64,000 bases of DNA from a virus (IMGVR_UViG_3300028797_000103:87685-151684), one strand, 5' to 3'; counted from the first letter of the stretch, positions 2,461 to 60,353 are shown. Notes: a model not told the origin generated them from the letters alone. Translations and numbers: made by a program.

Positions 2461-3195
2461 ATGGGAATGAAAATAGCATTTATGAGCGATCTTCACGGGT
2501 CGCTCATAGACTTTAAAGAAAAGGTTGATCTTGTTTGTATAGCCGGTGACATCGTTCCGCTTGAAATACAGAACGATGTGTTCAAATCTATAGCTTGGTT
2601 TAGCGGAAAGTTTGTTCCTTGGGCTGAAGGACTGGATTGTGCTAAAGTTATATTCATAGGTGGAAATCACGACTTCTTTTTACAGAGAATTGTAAACCAA
2701 TATTTTTCTGGAAGAAACATTGACTATTCTTTATATGAAAAAGAAAGCGCGGCGGCTGATGTGATAAAGGATAAATTGATGCTTCCGAAGAAAATTGTTT
2801 ATCTTCAGGATACAGTTTATAACTATAACCACAAAAAGATTTATGGAACACCGTGGATTCCGGAATTGAGCAGATGGGCGTTTTACAAGTCAAGCGAAGA
2901 CCTGAAAGAAGTGTTTGAAAAAATACCGGAAGACGTTGACGTCCTATTAACGCATAGTCCTGGAAAATATGTAAATGACACTGGTGTAAGTTTGCAGGAT
3001 TATAGACTTCCTGAATATGGGTCACAAGAATTGAGCGAAGCTGTATTCAAAAAGAAACCGAAATATTGGTTTTGCGGACACGTTCATTCTGGAAATCACA
3101 TTATGACAGAATATGGAGCAACGACGGTAGCAAACGTAAGCATAAAGGATGAAAACTATAGAGTTAGTTACGTCCCGCTTATAATTGAAATTTAA
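2461..3195 (+). CDS. calcineurin-like metallophosphoesterase
   Basis: Motifs SDLHG, GDIV, GGNHDF, THSPG and GHVHSGNH are present. The start overlaps the previous stop by 1 nt. Confidence 0.6.
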   Translation: MGMKIAFMSDLHGSLIDFKEKVDLVCIAGDIVPLEIQNDVFKSIAWFSGKFVPWAEGLDCAKVIFIGGNHDFFLQRIVNQYFSGRNIDYSLYEKESAAADVIKDKLMLPKKIVYLQDTVYNYNHKKIYGTPWIPELSRWAFYKSSEDLKEVFEKIPEDVDVLLTHSPGKYVNDTGVSLQDYRLPEYGSQELSEAVFKKKPKYWFCGHVHSGNHIMTEYGATTVANVSIKDENYRVSYVPLIIEI

Positions 3196-24824: not shown

Positions 24825-25739
24825 ATGAAAACACAAACGTATACCAAGATTCAGACATTGTATAAAAGGTATGTGCTTAAAGGCGTTGACCTCCCCAACA
24901 AGGATTGGATTGTTTTCCAGAACAAAATCATCCTCGGAGGATATTCCGATGATCACATGAAATATGTGAAGAATCTTCTTTTCGATTGCACGGAGAAGGT
25001 TGACGGAACAAACTCAAAGATTGTATATCTTCCTTCTACCGGAGAATGCTTCTGCGGAGGAAAGACTGATAACGCGGATATTGTTGGGACTGGTCAGAAA
25101 GTGTTTCTCGATGCTGTAATTGAAAGAATCAAACCAATTCTTGCAGAGCTTTTCCCTCCAGAGTCCGCCAAGTTTACTCCTAAAGTGAACGACAAGAATC
25201 AGATTCAGTATTATAACATTTCTTCTGATGTTAATGGAGCCATTCTTTCAGATGTCAATCCAATCGCACCGGGTGTTTATGGTGTAGAGCTTGAGGAGGT
25301 TCCTGTTTACATTTACGGCGAGTTCTACGGAAAGAAGATTCAGAAAGGAGGAAATTACGACAAGGACAACAACCGTTTCGCCGTGTTCGATATTTGTCAG
25401 CAGGGATGGTGGGTTCCTCTCGATATGCTTTCTGAATATACTCAGAAGCTTGGTCTCGATTTGGTTCCTTACATCGGGCAGATGACAATCGACGAAGCCG
25501 AAGAAATTGTGAAGAATGGGTTCAAAACGACGGTTCCGAATGTCAGCAATCCGGATTACCTTGCCGAAGGAATCGTAGCTCGCCCCGTTGTTCCAATCAA
25601 GGATCCTCGTGGTCGCAGGATAATTGTAAAAATAAAGACTTGTGATTACAATGATCTTCGGGTTGCTATAAACAAAGTTGGTGAAGAAGAGTACAGAAAA
25701 TTCGACGCGTGGTATAAAGAAAATGTAGAATCTGTATAA
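24825..25739 (+). CDS. RNA-ligase-like nucleotidyltransferase (ligase superfamily)
   Basis: Motif I KVDGTN, motif III-like YIYGEFYGKKIQ, motif IV/V AEGIVARP and FDI. Confidence 0.55.
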   Translation: MKTQTYTKIQTLYKRYVLKGVDLPNKDWIVFQNKIILGGYSDDHMKYVKNLLFDCTEKVDGTNSKIVYLPSTGECFCGGKTDNADIVGTGQKVFLDAVIERIKPILAELFPPESAKFTPKVNDKNQIQYYNISSDVNGAILSDVNPIAPGVYGVELEEVPVYIYGEFYGKKIQKGGNYDKDNNRFAVFDICQQGWWVPLDMLSEYTQKLGLDLVPYIGQMTIDEAEEIVKNGFKTTVPNVSNPDYLAEGIVARPVVPIKDPRGRRIIVKIKTCDYNDLRVAINKVGEEEYRKFDAWYKENVESV

Positions 25740-35673: not shown

Positions 35674-35761
35674 CGCGGGTTAGAGAAGTTGGTCATCTCG
35701 CCGGTCTCATAAGCCGGAACTGGACAAAATCTGGTCGGGGGTTCGAATCCTTCACCCGCTA
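35674..35761 (+). tRNA. tRNA-Met(CAT)-like with ~14-nt insertion in variable region
   Basis: The anticodon arm CCGGT-CTCATAA-GCCGG is identical to the tRNA at 42693. D-arm GAGA/TCTC. The variable region is unusually long. Confidence 0.45.
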
Positions 35762-38187: not shown

Positions 38188-39023
38188 CGAAACTTATTAC
38201 CATATTATCTTTCGGAGAAATGGTTGGATAAAGCTCGCGTGGAAGACGGCAATTGTCCGTAAAAGTTCAGTTAAAGGTTATCTTCCTTCATCAAGACGCT
38301 GAGTGTCGGTCACTCACCCAATCCCACACTGGGAATCCGCAGAATAGGCTTAATTGTGCATCGCTAATATGCGGACGGAATCTTGTAGCACAACATTGGT
38401 TTCGGAGGAAGTTCGAATCTTCCCGTCTTGGCAACAGCAGGCATCGGAAGGAATGCGACGGGATCCCCATTAGAGAGCTGACTGCTCTAGATGGTTCTTA
38501 TTCTAAATGTAGACCTTGAAGCCACGGAGATTGGTAGAAGAATAATGCGAATCTGGCGGTATCTCCACAACGCGTCGTTCGCAAAATGGTTGGGTTTAGT
38601 CGCTGATGTCGCCATAATGTATAAGTCCTGCTGACGTAAAAGTCGTTGATTCCGGCTGACCACTTTGCTGAGTAGGCGTCAAATTGGAGAAGTGATGCTG
38701 AGGGGGCATAGTAAAAGAACCGCGTAGTATGCGAAGAGAAATTCCGTCATTAACTCCAAATATAAGTCGGGGTGGCTAGCAAAGGGAACGGTTCCGGTCC
38801 AATATCATAAAAATCCTTATGAAATCTGAGACAATCACGAGTCGGAATGGGTACAATTTGAAAAAATTGGGTTGCGGAGAAGATAACTCTTCATGCATTT
38901 ACATCGGAAGAACACAGTAGCAAAATTAACCTGAGGTGGGCTCACCCTCTTGAAAAAATAGAGGATAAGCAAGAACAGAGAGTACATAGTTTATTTAAAA
39001 CATCCGATGACCAACATTATAAC

Positions 39024-39098
39024 GTGCCATTAGCTCAGGTAGAAGAGCCGAGGGGCTTTGCCCCACACGTGTCGGCGGTGCAAATCCGTCATGGTGCG
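39024..39098 (+). tRNA. tRNA-like, atypical anticodon arm (possible Lys-TTT-like; C33, 6-bp stem/5-nt loop alternative)
   Basis: Acceptor GTGCCAT/ATGGTGC with a canonical D-arm. The anticodon region is GAGGG-GCTTTGC-CCCAC and the T-loop is TGCAAAT. Confidence 0.3.
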
Positions 39099-39104
39099 TA
39101 TTTC

Positions 39105-40165: not shown

Positions 40166-40238
40166 GATCCTGTGAGACATTTGGTAGTCTGGCCGTCCCT
40201 AAAACGGTTTTATGCGGGTTCGATTCCTGTCAGGATCA
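40166..40238 (+). tRNA. putative amber-suppressor tRNA, anticodon CTA (C33 atypical)
   Basis: GATCCTG TG AGAC-ATTTGGTA-GTCT G GCCGT-CCCTAAA-ACGGT TTTAT GCGGG-TTCGATT-CCTGT CAGGATC A. Confidence 0.45.
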
Positions 40239-40245
40239 CAATAAA

Positions 40246-42347: not shown

Positions 42348-42692
42348 ATCCCTAGTGTACCCAGAGCTAGCGTGGACGTGGCTAGGTCGGATGCGATCAT
42401 CAAGTCGCAGACGAAAGAAACCCCATTGATGTAATGGCAGCATACCTGACGCGAATTCAGGAAGTTCGAGTTCGAATCTCGATGGTTTGGGTTCAAAAAA
42501 AAAAACAACGGAACCTTGCTGGTGCGAAAACTTCCGAAAATTCGGCTCTAACCACCAGAAAAAACCGTGAGGACCAAGGGGCACCAACCAGGAAGGCTGC
42601 ATCTTAGTTGTACATACGATGTAGTTGACGTGCTGGGAGAAGTAGATCCATAGGAGCGGAGAAACGTTGTTTTTTAGAAATTTGCGGCGTGG

Positions 42693-42756
42693 AGCAGAGG
42701 TCAGCTTGCCGGTCTCATAAGCCGGAGGTCGTAGGTTCGAATCCTACCGCACGCAA
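42693..42756 (+). tRNA. tRNA-Met(CAT), initiator-like body
   Basis: The sequence TGCGGCG TG GAGC AGAGGTCA GCTT G CCGGT-CTCATAA-GCCGG AGGTC GTAGG-TTCGAAT-CCTAC is closely collinear with E. coli tRNA-fMet. The 3' acceptor strand CGC(A)CGCA carries a one-nucleotide bulge. Confidence 0.6.
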
Positions 42757-43287: not shown

Positions 43288-43464
43288 CTAATTCACGACA
43301 GTATTTGCAGGTTCAAGTCCTGTTCTGAGGCGGATGACGACGAACTGGTATGTAGCTTAATGGTGTTAAATCCCGTGCCAGCCTTTGTTAGGGAGTTGCT
43401 GTTAAGTAAGGTCGGCTGTTGATAAATCTGCTGTCATAGCGCTGTGGCAGTACGTGAATGATAT

Positions 43465-43550
43465 AGGTCGGTCGCCTAGCGGTTGATGGCATCAGTCTCC
43501 AAAACTGACGAGGTTATTCCTCCACGTGGGTTCGAATCCTACCCGGCCTG
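43465..43550 (+). tRNA. type-II (long variable arm, Ser-like body) tRNA with anticodon CCA (Trp codon), discriminator G73
   Basis: AGGTCGG TC GCCTAGCGGTTGATGGC A TCAGT-CTCCAAA-ACTGA with variable stem GAGG/CCTC, then GTGGG-TTCGAAT-CCTAC CCGGCCT G. The anticodon stem has five perfect base pairs. Confidence 0.55.
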
Positions 43551-48682: not shown

Positions 48683-49224
48683 CAAATAAAATACAAATTT
48701 AATTTTCATGAAAACAAGAGAAATTGATGAATAATAATTTGGGGACGATATAGAATTTGACTCAAGTTGTCGAACATAATAAGCACGTCGTGCGCCGGTC
48801 ATTTAGCACGTTAATCTCGATGATCAAGAAATAGCTGACAACAGCAACTACAGACTCGCTGCTTAATCAACCGTGTTGGTTAACTTAATTCATCGGAGCC
48901 AAGGCAGCTTCGGAACGAGTGCTTCAGCAGAAGTTTTCTGTCTTCGGTATATTCTGCAACACGAAGCATCATCATTAACCGGAGAGCAGCATCGAAACCC
49001 TTCGTATCGATGTTCGCTAAATCGAAGGAAGGCTGTTCAGGTTTTGTTTCTCTTTTTCTGCCAGCAAATTATAAGAGAAAATAAACGTGTAGAAAGTTGT
49101 GTAAGAGATTTGAACACGGCGGGGCGGTTCCGCCCGTCTCCACAAATTTTGGTTCGTTTTGTCACTTTTGTTAAGTTTTTTGAAAATTTTTGCAAAAATA
49201 CTTTTTTATTTCAAATAAATACAG

Positions 49225-49237
49225 TACATTTGCAACA
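49225..49237 (+). promoter_or_regulatory. promoter box variant gTACATTTGcaac
   Basis: Followed by tcaaactgaaacgg, which also follows the box at 49338. Confidence 0.4.
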
Positions 49238-49337
49238 CCAAACTGAAACGGAAACGTTTCTTAGGTGACAAAGTTCATTGAAATGCAAAAATATTGAAAA
49301 TTTTTCGAAATTTATTTTGAAGTTTCAAAAATTATCC

Positions 49338-51617: not shown

Positions 51618-51702
51618 GTCGGGGTGGCCGAGTGGCTAGGCAACGGTCTGCAAAACCGTATGGGTGTAAAAGCCTACGCAGGTTCGAATCCTGTCCCCGA
51701 CT
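51618..51702 (+). tRNA. type-II (long variable arm, Ser-like body) tRNA with anticodon GCA (Cys codons), discriminator U73
   Basis: GTCGGGG TG GCC GAGTGGCTA GGC A ACGGT-CTGCAAA-ACCGT with a long variable arm, then GCAGG-TTCGAAT-CCTGT CCCCGAC T. The anticodon stem is identical to tRNA-Ser(GCT) at 57101. Confidence 0.55.
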
Positions 51703-57100: not shown

Positions 57101-57189
57101 GGAGGCTTACCCAAGTGGCTGAAGGGGACGGTTTGCTAAACCGTTAGTGCGTTAATAGCGCAGCGGGCGTTCGAATCGCCCAGCCTCCG
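57101..57189 (+). tRNA. tRNA-Ser(GCT)
   Basis: GGAGGCT TA CCC AAGTGGCTGAAGGGG A CGGTT-TGCTAAA-ACCGT with a long variable arm, then GGGCG-TTCGAAT-CGCCC AGCCTCC G. Confidence 0.75.
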
Positions 57190-57213
57190 CAAAGGAAAAA
57201 CAAATAAAATTAA

Positions 57214-57865: not shown

Positions 57866-58477
57866 ATGATAACTAAATTTACAGGCGACGGTCTTTTCTT
57901 TACGTCTGATACACACTTCAACCACAAGAAGATTCTTGATTTCACAAAGCGTCCGTATTCCAGCATAGAGGAACACGATGAGGCTCTTATTGAGAACTGG
58001 AATTCTGTTGTCGGATTAAACGACACCGTGTTCCATCTCGGAGATTTCTGCTTCGGTAATCCTTCAAAGGTTGAGGAAATCGCAAAGCGGTTGAATGGAC
58101 ACATAATTCTTATTCGTGGGAACCACGATGACAAAAACCTTCAGAAAAGTTTGTGGGGGCTGTTTGAAGACGTGCTGTATCAGGCTAGGATAAGCGTTGA
58201 TGGACGAAGCGTCTATTTGAATCATTTTCCGTTTCTCTGTTTTGCTCACGGAGATCCGAAGATTTATAGGGATGCGTACCATTACAATCTTTTTGGACAC
58301 GTTCACTCCGGAACACAATCTACGTCGTCCGATGTAAGCAGACTGCGTTATCTTTATCCTACACAGTATGATGTCGGTGTTGACAACAACAACATGACTC
58401 CTGTATCTTGGGAGTGGATTGACAATCATCTTCAGGAAAAGATTAAAAAGTATCTGGAGGAAAACGAGAATAACTAA
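57866..58477 (+). CDS. calcineurin-like metallophosphoesterase (third copy in window)
   Basis: SDTHFNH, HLGDF, IRGNHDD, AHGD and GHVHSG. Confidence 0.6.
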   Translation: MITKFTGDGLFFTSDTHFNHKKILDFTKRPYSSIEEHDEALIENWNSVVGLNDTVFHLGDFCFGNPSKVEEIAKRLNGHIILIRGNHDDKNLQKSLWGLFEDVLYQARISVDGRSVYLNHFPFLCFAHGDPKIYRDAYHYNLFGHVHSGTQSTSSDVSRLRYLYPTQYDVGVDNNNMTPVSWEWIDNHLQEKIKKYLEENENN

Positions 58478-58815: not shown

Positions 58816-58828
58816 TATATTTGCAAAA
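58816..58828 (+). promoter_or_regulatory. conserved promoter box gTATATTTGcaaa
   Basis: Located upstream of the polB fragment. Confidence 0.5.
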
Positions 58829-60353
58829 AAATTACAAGTCTTACATGATAATCAATACAGAAATAAAGGATCTGACAAAAAACGGAATGCCGGTGCTGGA
58901 CAGTTATGGTCGTTGCAAACGGTTTCTTTTAATTTCATATGTTGATAAAAACGGAACCATTAAAAAATTCGTCTGGGTGATACCTGAGGAATTTATGTAT
59001 CAGTGGAAATATGCAACAAGAAACGACGTTCCGGATCCTGTATACAAGTCTTGGGATTTTAAAAACGTTGTTAAGGAACCAATAGTTGGAAACTTTTCAG
59101 AGCAGCGTGTACATGAAATGATGCTTGATTTGGTTGCATCAAATCCAGATAATCCTGAACTGAAAGAAATGTTCGAGCTGAACATACCAGAAACGACATA
59201 TGCTGATATTGAGGTAGATGTTGGAGAAGACGGGTTCCCGCTAGCGGAAGAAGCAGCTAACACTGTAAACACTTGTTCATTCGTAAGGGGAAACGATGCT
59301 TGGTGCGTTGGTCTTGCGCAGTTGACAAACGATGACATCGAGTGGATTCAGAAAGAAATTGACAAGCACGTTTCCAAACTTGGAGTAAAATATAATTTCC
59401 ATTATAGATATCATGAAAATGAGCTCAGTCTGTTGAATGATATTTTCCAGAATTTCATAGGTACATCAGAGTGTGTTACTGGGTGGAACTGGTTTGGATA
59501 TGACTGGATATATTTGACAAACAGATCAAATCTTTATGGAATGGATATAAGTTATCTATCGCCAACAAAGTCATTTACAACTTACAGACCGATGGATGCA
59601 AAAGGAAAAGATGATAACATCAGGGTTCCTATGCACAGGGGGATGTACGATTATCTAGAAATTTACAGGAAGTGGGACAAGAGAATAACTCCAAAGATTA
59701 GCAACAAGCTTGACTGGGTAGCAGAGACTGTGCTTGGAATCAAGAAGGTAGCCCATCAGCTCGGATTCCGTGACATGTGGAGACAGCAGAAAAAGGAATA
59801 TGTTTTCTATAATGTAATCGATAGCATTCTTGTGCGGGAGATTGATAAGAAACTGAAGACATCATCAACATTTTTCGGTCTCGCAAACATCATGCACACT
59901 CCGGCTTTGACCGCATTCAGTTCTACGAAGAGTATCGAAATTGTTCAGTCTGAATATCTTTACAGAGAAAAAAGAATATTCCCGAAGGCGAAACAGAACA
60001 ATAACGTTCAGGAGTATGAGGGCGCATTTGTGTATGAACCCATTCCGGGTGTTTATATTCAGGTTTGGACTGTTGACTACGCGTCTCTTTATCCTACAAC
60101 TATGAGGCAATTTAATATGTCTCCTGACACATTTATAAAGAAAGACAAGAATCATAGGAGACAGCCAGATGAGATAGTTTGTGTCAACGGTTCTGTTTAT
60201 ACTAAAAAATTCCGTGGATTCATTCCAAAAATATTGGATGACTTCTACGCTAAGAGAAAGTCGTATAAAAAGAAGATGATTGAGGCTGAAGAAACCAAGT
60301 ACGAATTGCAGGAAATATTAAAAAGCAGAAAAGAAAAAGCAACAGTCGCATAA
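58821..60353 (+). CDS. family-B DNA polymerase, N-terminal fragment (3'-5' exonuclease region through polymerase motif A); gene is split/truncated
   Basis: Exo-I-like YADIEVD and motif A VDYASLYPTTM. The ORF stops ~100 aa after motif A, and motifs B and C are absent. The listed start 58821 probably over-extends, since the promoter box lies at 58816-58828. Confidence 0.55.
   Translation: MQKNYKSYMIINTEIKDLTKNGMPVLDSYGRCKRFLLISYVDKNGTIKKFVWVIPEEFMYQWKYATRNDVPDPVYKSWDFKNVVKEPIVGNFSEQRVHEMMLDLVASNPDNPELKEMFELNIPETTYADIEVDVGEDGFPLAEEAANTVNTCSFVRGNDAWCVGLAQLTNDDIEWIQKEIDKHVSKLGVKYNFHYRYHENELSLLNDIFQNFIGTSECVTGWNWFGYDWIYLTNRSNLYGMDISYLSPTKSFTTYRPMDAKGKDDNIRVPMHRGMYDYLEIYRKWDKRITPKISNKLDWVAETVLGIKKVAHQLGFRDMWRQQKKEYVFYNVIDSILVREIDKKLKTSSTFFGLANIMHTPALTAFSSTKSIEIVQSEYLYREKRIFPKAKQNNNVQEYEGAFVYEPIPGVYIQVWTVDYASLYPTTMRQFNMSPDTFIKKDKNHRRQPDEIVCVNGSVYTKKFRGFIPKILDDFYAKRKSYKKKMIEAEETKYELQEILKSRKEKATVA

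Follow-up and report, generated by a model that had tools for sequence, protein, structure and literature searches.

A class-II tRNA with a CCA anticodon in a huge-phage tRNA array, probably charged with tryptophan

Structure of the tRNA gene

The stretch of viral DNA analysed here (IMGVR_UViG_3300028797_000103:87685-151684), 64,000 nucleotides long and referred to as the window, carries a dispersed array of tRNA genes, all in the same orientation (Table 1). One of these genes joins the anticodon CCA to a class-II body, i.e., one with a long variable arm, and it is the sole Trp decoder in the window. Our analysis indicates that it probably encodes a tRNA-Trp, charged with tryptophan and reading UGG. 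A preliminary description of the locus had reported a class-II tRNA with a CCA anticodon, G73, a GAGG-TTATT-CCTC arm and a perfect TCAGT/ACTGA stem; each of these elements was recovered at the same position.

In the acceptor stem, all seven pairs are formed (A1:U72, G2:C71, G3:C70, U4.G69, C5:G68, G6:C67 and G7:C66). A TC linker leads to the D-arm, which reads GCC-TAGCGGTTGAT-GGC, with a 3-bp stem and an 11-nt loop, and a single A separates it from the anticodon stem. The anticodon is presented in the 7-nt loop CTCCAAA. In the variable region, a 4-bp stem with a 5-nt loop has one unpaired base before it (5') and three after it (3'). The T-loop has the canonical sequence TTCGAAT, and the acceptor/T branch is a normal 7/5.

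ARAGORN labels the gene tRNA-Trp(cca). The Rfam model RF00005, with a gathering score of 29, is matched over its full length (1-71) at 50.7 bits; E is 8e-10 in the local search and 6.5e-8 when the whole window is searched. The 17 bases beyond the model are aligned as an insertion in the variable region. The minimum free energy and centroid folds from ViennaRNA are an identical cloverleaf, both with the variable-arm hairpin (4 bp/5 nt). The cloverleaf and the CCA anticodon are thus confirmed by three independent methods. No other triplet occupies the anticodon position in the Rfam or ViennaRNA folds, and the long variable arm is present in the covariance-model alignment; the preliminary description turned on both features, and both held. 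An intron was ruled out as the source of the extra length, the anticodon loop being intact and the insert in the variable region being a covarying hairpin. Since the fold energy alone is unexceptional (z = -1.1), the case against a chance fold is made by the covariance-model score and the covariation among relatives. A scan for promoters and terminators around the gene gave no signal above shuffled background.

Table 1. Positions of the tRNA gene, its parts and the other features of the window
Feature	Position	Strand	Method and score
Class-II tRNA gene, anticodon CCA, 86 nt, no encoded CCA tail	43465-43550	+	ARAGORN, Rfam, minimum free energy fold
Acceptor 5' strand, AGGTCGG	43465-43471	+	Sequence reading, script parse
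D-arm, GCCTAGCGGTTGATGGC, class-II (Ser/Tyr) type	43474-43490	+	
Anticodon arm, TCAGT-CTCCAAA-ACTGA	43492-43508	+	
Anticodon stem strands	43492-43496, 43504-43508	+	
Anticodon CCA	43499-43501	+	
Variable region, CGAGGTTATTCCTCCAC = C-GAGG-TTATT-CCTC-CAC, 17 nt	43509-43525	+	
T-arm, GTGGG-TTCGAAT-CCTAC	43526-43542	+	
Acceptor 3' strand, CCGGCCT	43543-43549	+	Sequence, Rfam
Discriminator G73	43550	+	Sequence, Rfam
tRNA array, 31-32 tRNA genes for all 20 amino acids, with CUA suppressor and tmRNA	34642-61487	+	ARAGORN (31 tRNAs), Rfam (tmRNA, one more tRNA-like element)
Long-arm CAU tRNA, 88 nt, 19-nt variable region, 6-bp stem	35674-35761	+	ARAGORN, Rfam (48.9 bits)
tRNA-Gln(ttg), 77 nt	39023-39099	+	ARAGORN only; below Rfam tRNA gathering score
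CUA suppressor tRNA, labelled 'Pyl'	40166-40239	+	ARAGORN
tRNA-like element	42684-42755	+	Rfam (54.2 bits); missed by ARAGORN
Spacer between tRNA-Leu(gag) and the CCA tRNA	43289-43464		
T-arm-like segment, GCAGG-TTCAAGT-CCTGT	about 43309-43325		
tmRNA	48741-49145	+	Rfam RF00023 (86.9 bits, full-length); not reported by ARAGORN
Open reading frame overlapping the tmRNA, probably spurious	48873-49268		
Long-arm GCA tRNA, 85 nt, class-II D-arm, 18-nt variable region, 5-bp stem, U73	51618-51702	+	ARAGORN, Rfam (58.4 bits)
tRNA-Ser(gct), 90 nt	57101-57190	+	ARAGORN only; below Rfam tRNA gathering score
Family B DNA polymerase (PolB) reading frame	58821-60353	+	
RNA ligase (PF09414)	24825-25739	+	
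Calcineurin-like phosphoesterases	2461-3195, 57866-58477	+	

Selection on the fold

Relatives were retrieved from IMG/VR with a pattern consisting of CTCCAAA, 20-32 bases and a T-loop, which matched at least 120 loci; among the matches listed, at least 55 different genes called tRNA-Trp(cca) by ARAGORN have a length of 80 nt or above. The pattern itself fixes part of the invariance of the anticodon loop and T-loop (CTCCAAA is fixed) and leaves the helices and G73 free. Twelve gapless 83-nt long-arm Trp relatives were aligned and scored on the cloverleaf plus the variable-arm hairpin. Standard pairs occupy 98.9% of the cells, and 19 of the 23 pairs are altered on both sides, including all three of the variable arm; covariation is found in all five helices. 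None of 500 shuffles reached the observed pairing and covariation values, and sliding the 3' partners lowers pairing to 32-42%. Closest to the gene in the window is L044 (found again as L465, L470 and L475), which has exactly its acceptor stem and D-arm, with compensatory changes at 27:43, 49:65 and 51:63 and an arm re-built as 3 bp/GAAA. Every helix shows compensatory change on both sides, which points to a functioning tRNA kept under purifying selection.

The same changes speak against a role outside translation, in which the gene would be a decoy or sponge (for instance for host tRNA nucleases or modification enzymes), a processing signal of the array or a decaying pseudogene. Such a role would agree with the Rfam score, which is in the lower part of the range of the window's tRNAs, with the presence of a degenerate tRNA-like element in the same window, and with reports of many oversized or 'mismatch isotype' tRNAs in huge phages, for which non-canonical roles have been speculated upon (10.1101/356790). 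However, every helix of the gene is perfectly paired and its T-loop canonical, and it fills the single isotype otherwise absent from the set. CTCCAAA and G73 also recur in very divergent relatives, and while the former is set by the retrieval pattern, the latter (94% in arrays) is not. We regard a non-translating role as quite improbable.

Acceptor end and geometry of the variable arm

The identity set of bacterial tRNA-Trp, as described in PMC9976931, comprises A1:U72, G2:C71, G3:C70 and G73 together with C34, C35 and A36, and in B. subtilis also G4:C69. The gene has all of the main elements, and shares with canonical tRNA-Trp of the E. coli and B. subtilis kind the CUCCAAA loop and the position of sole UGG decoder. 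It departs from it at the minor element, U4.G69 standing for G4:C69, in having the class-II D-arm, and in architecture: canonical tRNA-Trp is class I, with a variable loop of 4-5 nt, where the gene has its 17-nt hairpin region.

With bacterial tRNA-Ser it has in common the type of D-arm, a variable-arm hairpin, G73, G2:C71 and C11:G24. Unlike tRNA-Ser, it has A:U at 1:72, G:C at 3:70, three unpaired bases on the 3' side of the arm and a non-Ser anticodon; from the Ser acceptor set (G1:C72, G2:C71, A3:U70) only G2:C71 is present. The window's own two tRNA-Ser genes begin GGAGG. G73 is part of both identities and does not discriminate between Ser and Trp. The same distinction holds when 68 array-borne long-arm Trp tRNAs are compared with 71 tRNA-Ser from the same loci. 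Pair 1:72 is G:C in 96% of the tRNA-Ser, and A:U (60%), G.U (15%) or G:C (12%) in the long-arm Trp tRNAs; pair 2:71 is G:C in 94%, against G:C (51%) or C:G (25%); pair 3:70 is A:U in 89%, against G:C in 65%; and base 73 is G (77%) or U (21%), against G in 94%.

Variable regions were also folded on their own and compared across isotypes. Arms of tRNA-Ser have a single unpaired 3' base in 97 of 163 cases (none or one in 124), and stems of 4-7 bp in 156; Ser-type geometry is taken here as none or one unpaired 3' base, a stem usually of 5-7 bp and a region of 15-25 nt. For tRNA-Leu, two unpaired 3' bases (92 of 138) and 3-5 bp are usual, and for tRNA-Tyr three (41 of 59) and 3 bp. Three is also the mode in long-arm Cys, Met, Thr, Asn and Lys tRNAs and in long-arm Trp tRNAs with U72 and G73 (27 of 56), all mostly with 3-4 bp. 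With three unpaired 3' bases and 4 bp, the gene in the window has the long arm of a tRNA-Ser without its geometry, and its Tyr-like geometry argues against serylation. The likeness to bacterial tRNA-Tyr extends to the whole arm (one unpaired, 3-4 bp, three unpaired) and to the 3-bp D-stem, but tRNA-Tyr has A73 and a GUA anticodon; the absence of A73 excludes both Leu and Tyr identity. TyrRS, the tyrosyl-tRNA synthetase, is a class Ic paralogue of TrpRS, the tryptophanyl-tRNA synthetase; bacterial TrpRS is not known to have a C-terminal S4-like domain that binds the arm. In TyrRS, such a domain does bind the variable arm (PMC5370408).

A natural control is provided by eight CCA tRNAs that keep the Ser acceptor (GGA or GGU, with G73 or U73): L147 (Pelagibius sp. 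7325, 1918-2007 c), L175, L194, L173, L213, L151, L179 and L115, in which the acceptor begins GGAGAG or GGTGAG. All eight have Ser geometry, with one unpaired base, a 5-9 bp stem and a region of 18-24 nt. Seven of them stand alone in genome-collection contigs (Alphaproteobacteria, Dehalococcoidia, Acidobacteria, Acidimicrobiia, Saccharibacteria, Gammaproteobacteria), and L115 is from a viral contig. To judge by these features it is they, rather than the gene in the window, that are the real candidates for Trp-to-Ser mistranslation. Eight further solitary CCA tRNAs (L166, L189, L190, L205, L156, L130, L169 and L191) have Leu-type bodies: all have A73, five have Leu arm geometry, and most have a D-arm of the GTGGCGGAAT.GGTAGACGC type, from which L191 differs. 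They occur in Dehalococcoidia, Acidobacteria (Edaphobacter), the Candidate Phyla Radiation and other metagenome-assembled genomes, and are candidates for Trp-to-Leu mistranslation. The gene in the window, with an acceptor and arm geometry that are neither Ser- nor Leu-type, does not resemble mistranslating class-II tRNAs such as the nematode nev-tRNAs or Candida tRNA-Ser(CAG), in which the body retains a full class-II identity set under the anticodon of another amino acid, and with a CCA anticodon it is not a suppressor.

Codon use at TGG

TGG makes up 1.17% of 15,247 codons. Eleven TGG codons could be aligned with homologues, in Dam, PolB, dUTPase and ClpP. Conserved Trp is found at Dam W111, the invariant Trp of KWAGGK, and at PolB W222, the Trp of the RB69 GWN motif. 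At the other positions the homologues have Tyr or Phe (four codons), aliphatic residues (four) or Arg (one): Tyr/Phe at Dam W259, V, I, F, Y, R and M at the six other PolB codons, L/I at dUTPase W233 and F at ClpP W199. None of the eleven falls on a Ser column. The genes expect Trp at UGG, and if the sole Trp decoder were charged with Ser it would damage the phage's own proteins.

These results bear on the main proposal of the preliminary description, that SerRS, the seryl-tRNA synthetase, charges the tRNA and UGG is recoded as Ser. In its broader form, SerRS would attach Ser alone or beside Trp, and UGG would be read partly as Ser, as deliberate or tolerated mistranslation. The Ser-like elements named above, with the D-arm, the hairpin, G73, G2:C71 and C11:G24, are what such charging would use; the nearest tRNAs in cultured phages are tRNA-Ser(UGA), one of which, from phage RAS14, has an arm (CGAGGGTTATACCTCC) closely resembling that of the gene; SerRS is blind to the anticodon, and tRNA-Ser with a mutated anticodon mistranslates (PMC9976931). 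The nev-tRNAs are a precedent for a wrong identity (PMC3333845). Yet the near-universal Ser pairs G1:C72 and A3:U70 have been replaced in the gene, three unpaired 3' bases with only 4 bp are a non-Ser geometry, and genuine Ser-bodied CCA tRNAs retain all of the Ser features where this gene does not. A quarter of the array-borne relatives have C2:G71, an anti-SerRS element in E. coli (PMC9976931), and the phage genes need Trp at TGG from the only gene in the window that could supply it. We consider a dual or wrong identity unlikely, and the tRNA is probably not a Trp-to-Ser recoding device. The Ser body of the preliminary description stands as far as the class-II (Ser/Tyr) D-arm and the tRNA-Ser(UGA) neighbours go, and falls at the acceptor end and the arm geometry. 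Its alternative, that G73 and CCA would satisfy TrpRS, is favoured by the acceptor set, the arm geometry and the TGG columns.

Several points weigh against charging with Trp. The TGG columns reveal what the genes expect at UGG, not which amino acid the tRNA delivers. The D-arm resembles that of tRNA-Ser and seems to include the extra D-loop bases 20a and 20b (in our own numbering, not that of a tool), which in tRNA-Ser orient the arm. G2:C71, G73, C11:G24 and the 4-bp arm make up part of the E. coli SerRS set, and with the anticodon ignored by SerRS (PMC9976931) some charging with Ser is possible. Charging with Trp would need the TrpRS of a Bacteroidota host to tolerate a 17-nt arm. Long-arm Trp tRNAs are also a minority: loci picked for long Cys or Met tRNAs contain 37 short Trp tRNAs and one long one.

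A third possibility is that an altered core (C9 and the class-II hinge) lets the CCA tRNA read UGA as Trp, in the way known from E. coli tRNA-Trp with the Hirsh-type mutations G24A and A9C. Position 9 of the gene is C, mutations in the hinge of tRNA-Trp promote UGA reading (PMC13092985), and the phage already has one suppressor tRNA, with the anticodon CUA. Among the relatives, however, position 9 is free (T, G, A, C). TGA closes six of the window's 44 open reading frames and seems to act as a normal stop, and the conserved genes examined have no in-frame TGA problem. Near-cognate reading of UGA is very improbable.

Origin of the class-II body and distribution of the long-arm tRNAs

On the balance of these results, the gene would be a functional tRNA-Trp on a class-II chassis, charged by the host TrpRS and reading UGG as Trp; it would be the one Trp tRNA in the nearly complete set that the phage carries. 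We infer this charging, with fair confidence, from sequence. The body, i.e., the Ser/Tyr-type D-arm and the variable-arm hairpin, would derive from duplication of a class-II phage tRNA, in which the second anticodon position changed (from the Ser anticodon CGA, CCA is one base away) and pairs 1:72 and 3:70 were then remodelled to the Trp set A1:U72, G2:C71, G3:C70, G73. Recruitment or remolding of tRNA genes, which resembles this route, is known from mitochondria and from experiments in E. coli.

Isotypes were compared by nearest neighbours with the anticodon masked, in place of tRNAscan-SE isotype models. Among 2,580 collected tRNAs, the neighbours of the gene are other long-arm Trp tRNAs, followed by long-arm Cys tRNAs and tRNA-Ser(UGA); short Trp tRNAs are not near. 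The best BLAST matches in cultured phages are the tRNA-Ser(UGA) of Synechococcus phage RB11-B and Stenotrophomonas phage RAS14. An exact 18-mer of the D-arm has 13 matches in the viral and metagenome collections, six of them chance matches outside tRNAs and none in a tRNA-Ser. Long-arm tRNA-Thr(UGU) genes at L472 835-922 and L474 127-211 (c) have exactly the D-arm of the gene (TCGCCTAGCGGTTGATGGCA), with a Thr-type acceptor (G1:C72, C2:G71) and U73, which suggests that one class-II chassis has been reused for different amino acids. The type found in Collinsella arrays has the body of an ordinary tRNA-Trp into whose variable loop a hairpin has been inserted; by BLAST, its neighbours are Trp tRNAs of 74-76 nt. 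Set beside the Ser-like bodies, it indicates that the class arose more than once and that the chassis carries varied anticodon and acceptor combinations.

A tighter pattern matches 91 loci in cellular genomes (one genome each from 185,579 bacterial and archaeal species). These are of two kinds, genes within multi-tRNA arrays (Collinsella, Gemmata and other planctomycetes, Saccharibacteria, contigs of Bacteroidota metagenome-assembled genomes) and genes standing alone, whose body is simply that of a tRNA-Ser or tRNA-Leu. Among cultured phages, Vibrio phages VBP47 and VBP32 have an 84-nt long-arm version that is annotated plainly as tRNA-Trp. When eight diverse long-arm Trp tRNAs were compared with cultured phages by BLAST, nothing was found at E <= 1e-8; at E <= 0.01 the matches are canonical Trp tRNAs and the same two Vibrio phages. 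A scan of the whole genome of the Lak-A1 megaphage (MK250016.1) gave, as its sole Trp tRNA, a 92-nt long-arm gene with A1:U72 and G73; the same genome has a Cys tRNA of 81 nt in which the D-arm is class-II and base 73 is U.

Other isotypes behave likewise. The same pattern with a Cys anticodon yields at least 51 distinct long Cys(gca) tRNAs among the IMG/VR matches listed, mostly with U73. Of long Met(cat) tRNAs, at least 82 distinct ones are among the matches listed for Met, and many of them combine A73 with a 1-72 mismatch of the initiator kind (C1xA72 in many). Acceptor features are cognate in most long-arm Cys and in many long-arm Met tRNAs, as they are in the long-arm Thr tRNAs that have the same D-arm (G1:C72 and C2:G71). 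Long arms are also found on Asn, Lys, His, Ile, Val, Glu, Pro and Thr tRNAs in the fetched loci from phages and mobile genetic elements. The opposite change is frequent in their arrays as well: 41 distinct tRNA-Leu there have short (4-7 nt) variable loops and A73 (e.g., L003 3910-4236).

In the full-text-searchable literature, outside which most subscription journals lie, no account was found of phage tRNAs for Trp, Cys or Met with long arms; an earlier description may exist elsewhere. The Lak megaphage preprint (10.1101/356790) mentions only oversized and 'mismatch isotype' tRNAs. The phage long-arm tRNAs are apparently a widespread and undescribed class.

Comparison with known systems

Three known groups of tRNAs invite comparison. 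Nematode nev-tRNAs, like the gene in the window, combine class-II architecture with a class-I anticodon, that of Gly or Ile (PMC3333845, PMC4300185). They retain Leu identity elements, are charged with Leu in vitro and hence mistranslate (PMC3333845), whereas the acceptor of the gene described here fits the amino acid of its anticodon, and it belongs to a phage rather than a eukaryotic nucleus. Allo-tRNAs and irregular bacterial and phage tRNAs (PMC5389517) share the long arm, have G73 or U73 and diverse non-Ser anticodons, and in some cases lie in phage tRNA clusters. In allo-tRNAs the acceptor/T branches are 8/4 or 9/3 and the D-arm is Sec-like, and they are read as Ser acceptors (PMC5389517), unlike the 7/5 cloverleaf with a Trp-type acceptor found here. 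In Streptomyces coelicolor, a type I (short-loop) tRNA-Leu has crossed the boundary between class I and class II and is still charged by its cognate synthetase (PMC6614811); that case is one of arm loss, in a cellular gene and for a different amino acid.

Genomic context

The proteins encoded in the window are those of a huge phage: a split PolB, Dam and EcoRI-type methylases, DnaJ, ClpP, dUTPase, a radical SAM protein, RNA ligase and a DUF3575/OmpA protein. The nearest relatives of PolB are in the Prevotella Lak megaphages, with 36% identity over 98% of the query, and the crAss-like origin assumed in the preliminary description was rejected on this ground. In cultured phages, no close relative of the DNA of this region was found, only scattered tRNA matches. 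A neighbouring glycosyltransferase, followed as a route to related loci, led to two loci with 36-37% identity, without tRNAs. The polymerase gene appears, from its sequence, to be split. TAA follows residue 510, and a small hairpin and a tRNA-His come next; the alignment of the reading frame to RB69 gp43 is confined to the N-terminal half of the latter, and the Lak phages match the same piece of about 500 residues.

Two further class-I isotypes in the window, Cys and an initiator-like Met, are long-armed, and the acceptor features of each are cognate. The CAU tRNA is initiator-like in its C1xU72 mismatch, G2:C71, C3:G70, G4:C69 and A73, in agreement with the initiator and formylation determinants given in PMC9976931, where U73, as found in the GCA tRNA, is the Cys discriminator. 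The tRNA-like element has an anticodon arm (CAU) identical to that of this Met tRNA and an acceptor stem that pairs poorly; it may be a decaying or unusual Met tRNA. Of the two tRNAs called by ARAGORN only, the Gln(ttg) looks doubtful, and the Ser(gct) has a normal GGAGGCT acceptor and a 20-nt arm. In the spacer that precedes the CCA tRNA, no tRNA was called at E <= 1; the T-arm-like segment there may be a remnant of a lost tRNA. The 44 open reading frames end in TAA (36), TGA (6) or TAG (2), and few TAG stops beside a CUA suppressor fit the reassignment of TAG described for Lak megaphages.

Possible role of the arm

By analogy with T4, the RNA ligase and the two phosphoesterases could form an RNA (tRNA) repair set, which, if so, would point to pressure from tRNA-cleaving host defences. 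Tentatively, and with more doubt than belief, the arm may be seen as a selected add-on: phages would repeatedly have grafted a Tyr-type hairpin onto tRNAs of families that very few species decode (Trp, Cys and initiator Met, also Thr, Asn and Lys), keeping cognate charging, so that the copies escape host tRNA nucleases or are told apart from host tRNAs by phage factors. Hints in this direction are the two or more independent origins, the D-arm chassis common to Trp and Thr, one arm geometry across six isotypes, and the possible RNA-repair genes in the window, the ligase and two metallophosphoesterases. There is good documentation of tRNA cleavage as a host defence and of phage tRNAs that escape it (PMC10264068, PMC11555353, PMC13096335, PMC13273310); linking the arm to such defences is speculation.

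Phages maintain long-arm Trp tRNAs, and their relatives likewise include Cys, initiator-like Met, Thr and other tRNAs in which the acceptor end still matches the anticodon. If charging with Trp is confirmed, a large arm is acceptable to class I synthetases of the TrpRS kind, a tolerance that would be useful in the design of orthogonal or taggable tRNAs, and recoding should not be concluded from 'isotype mismatch' calls in the genomes of huge phages. It would also raise the question of whether the arm helps phage tRNAs to survive host defences that cleave tRNA.

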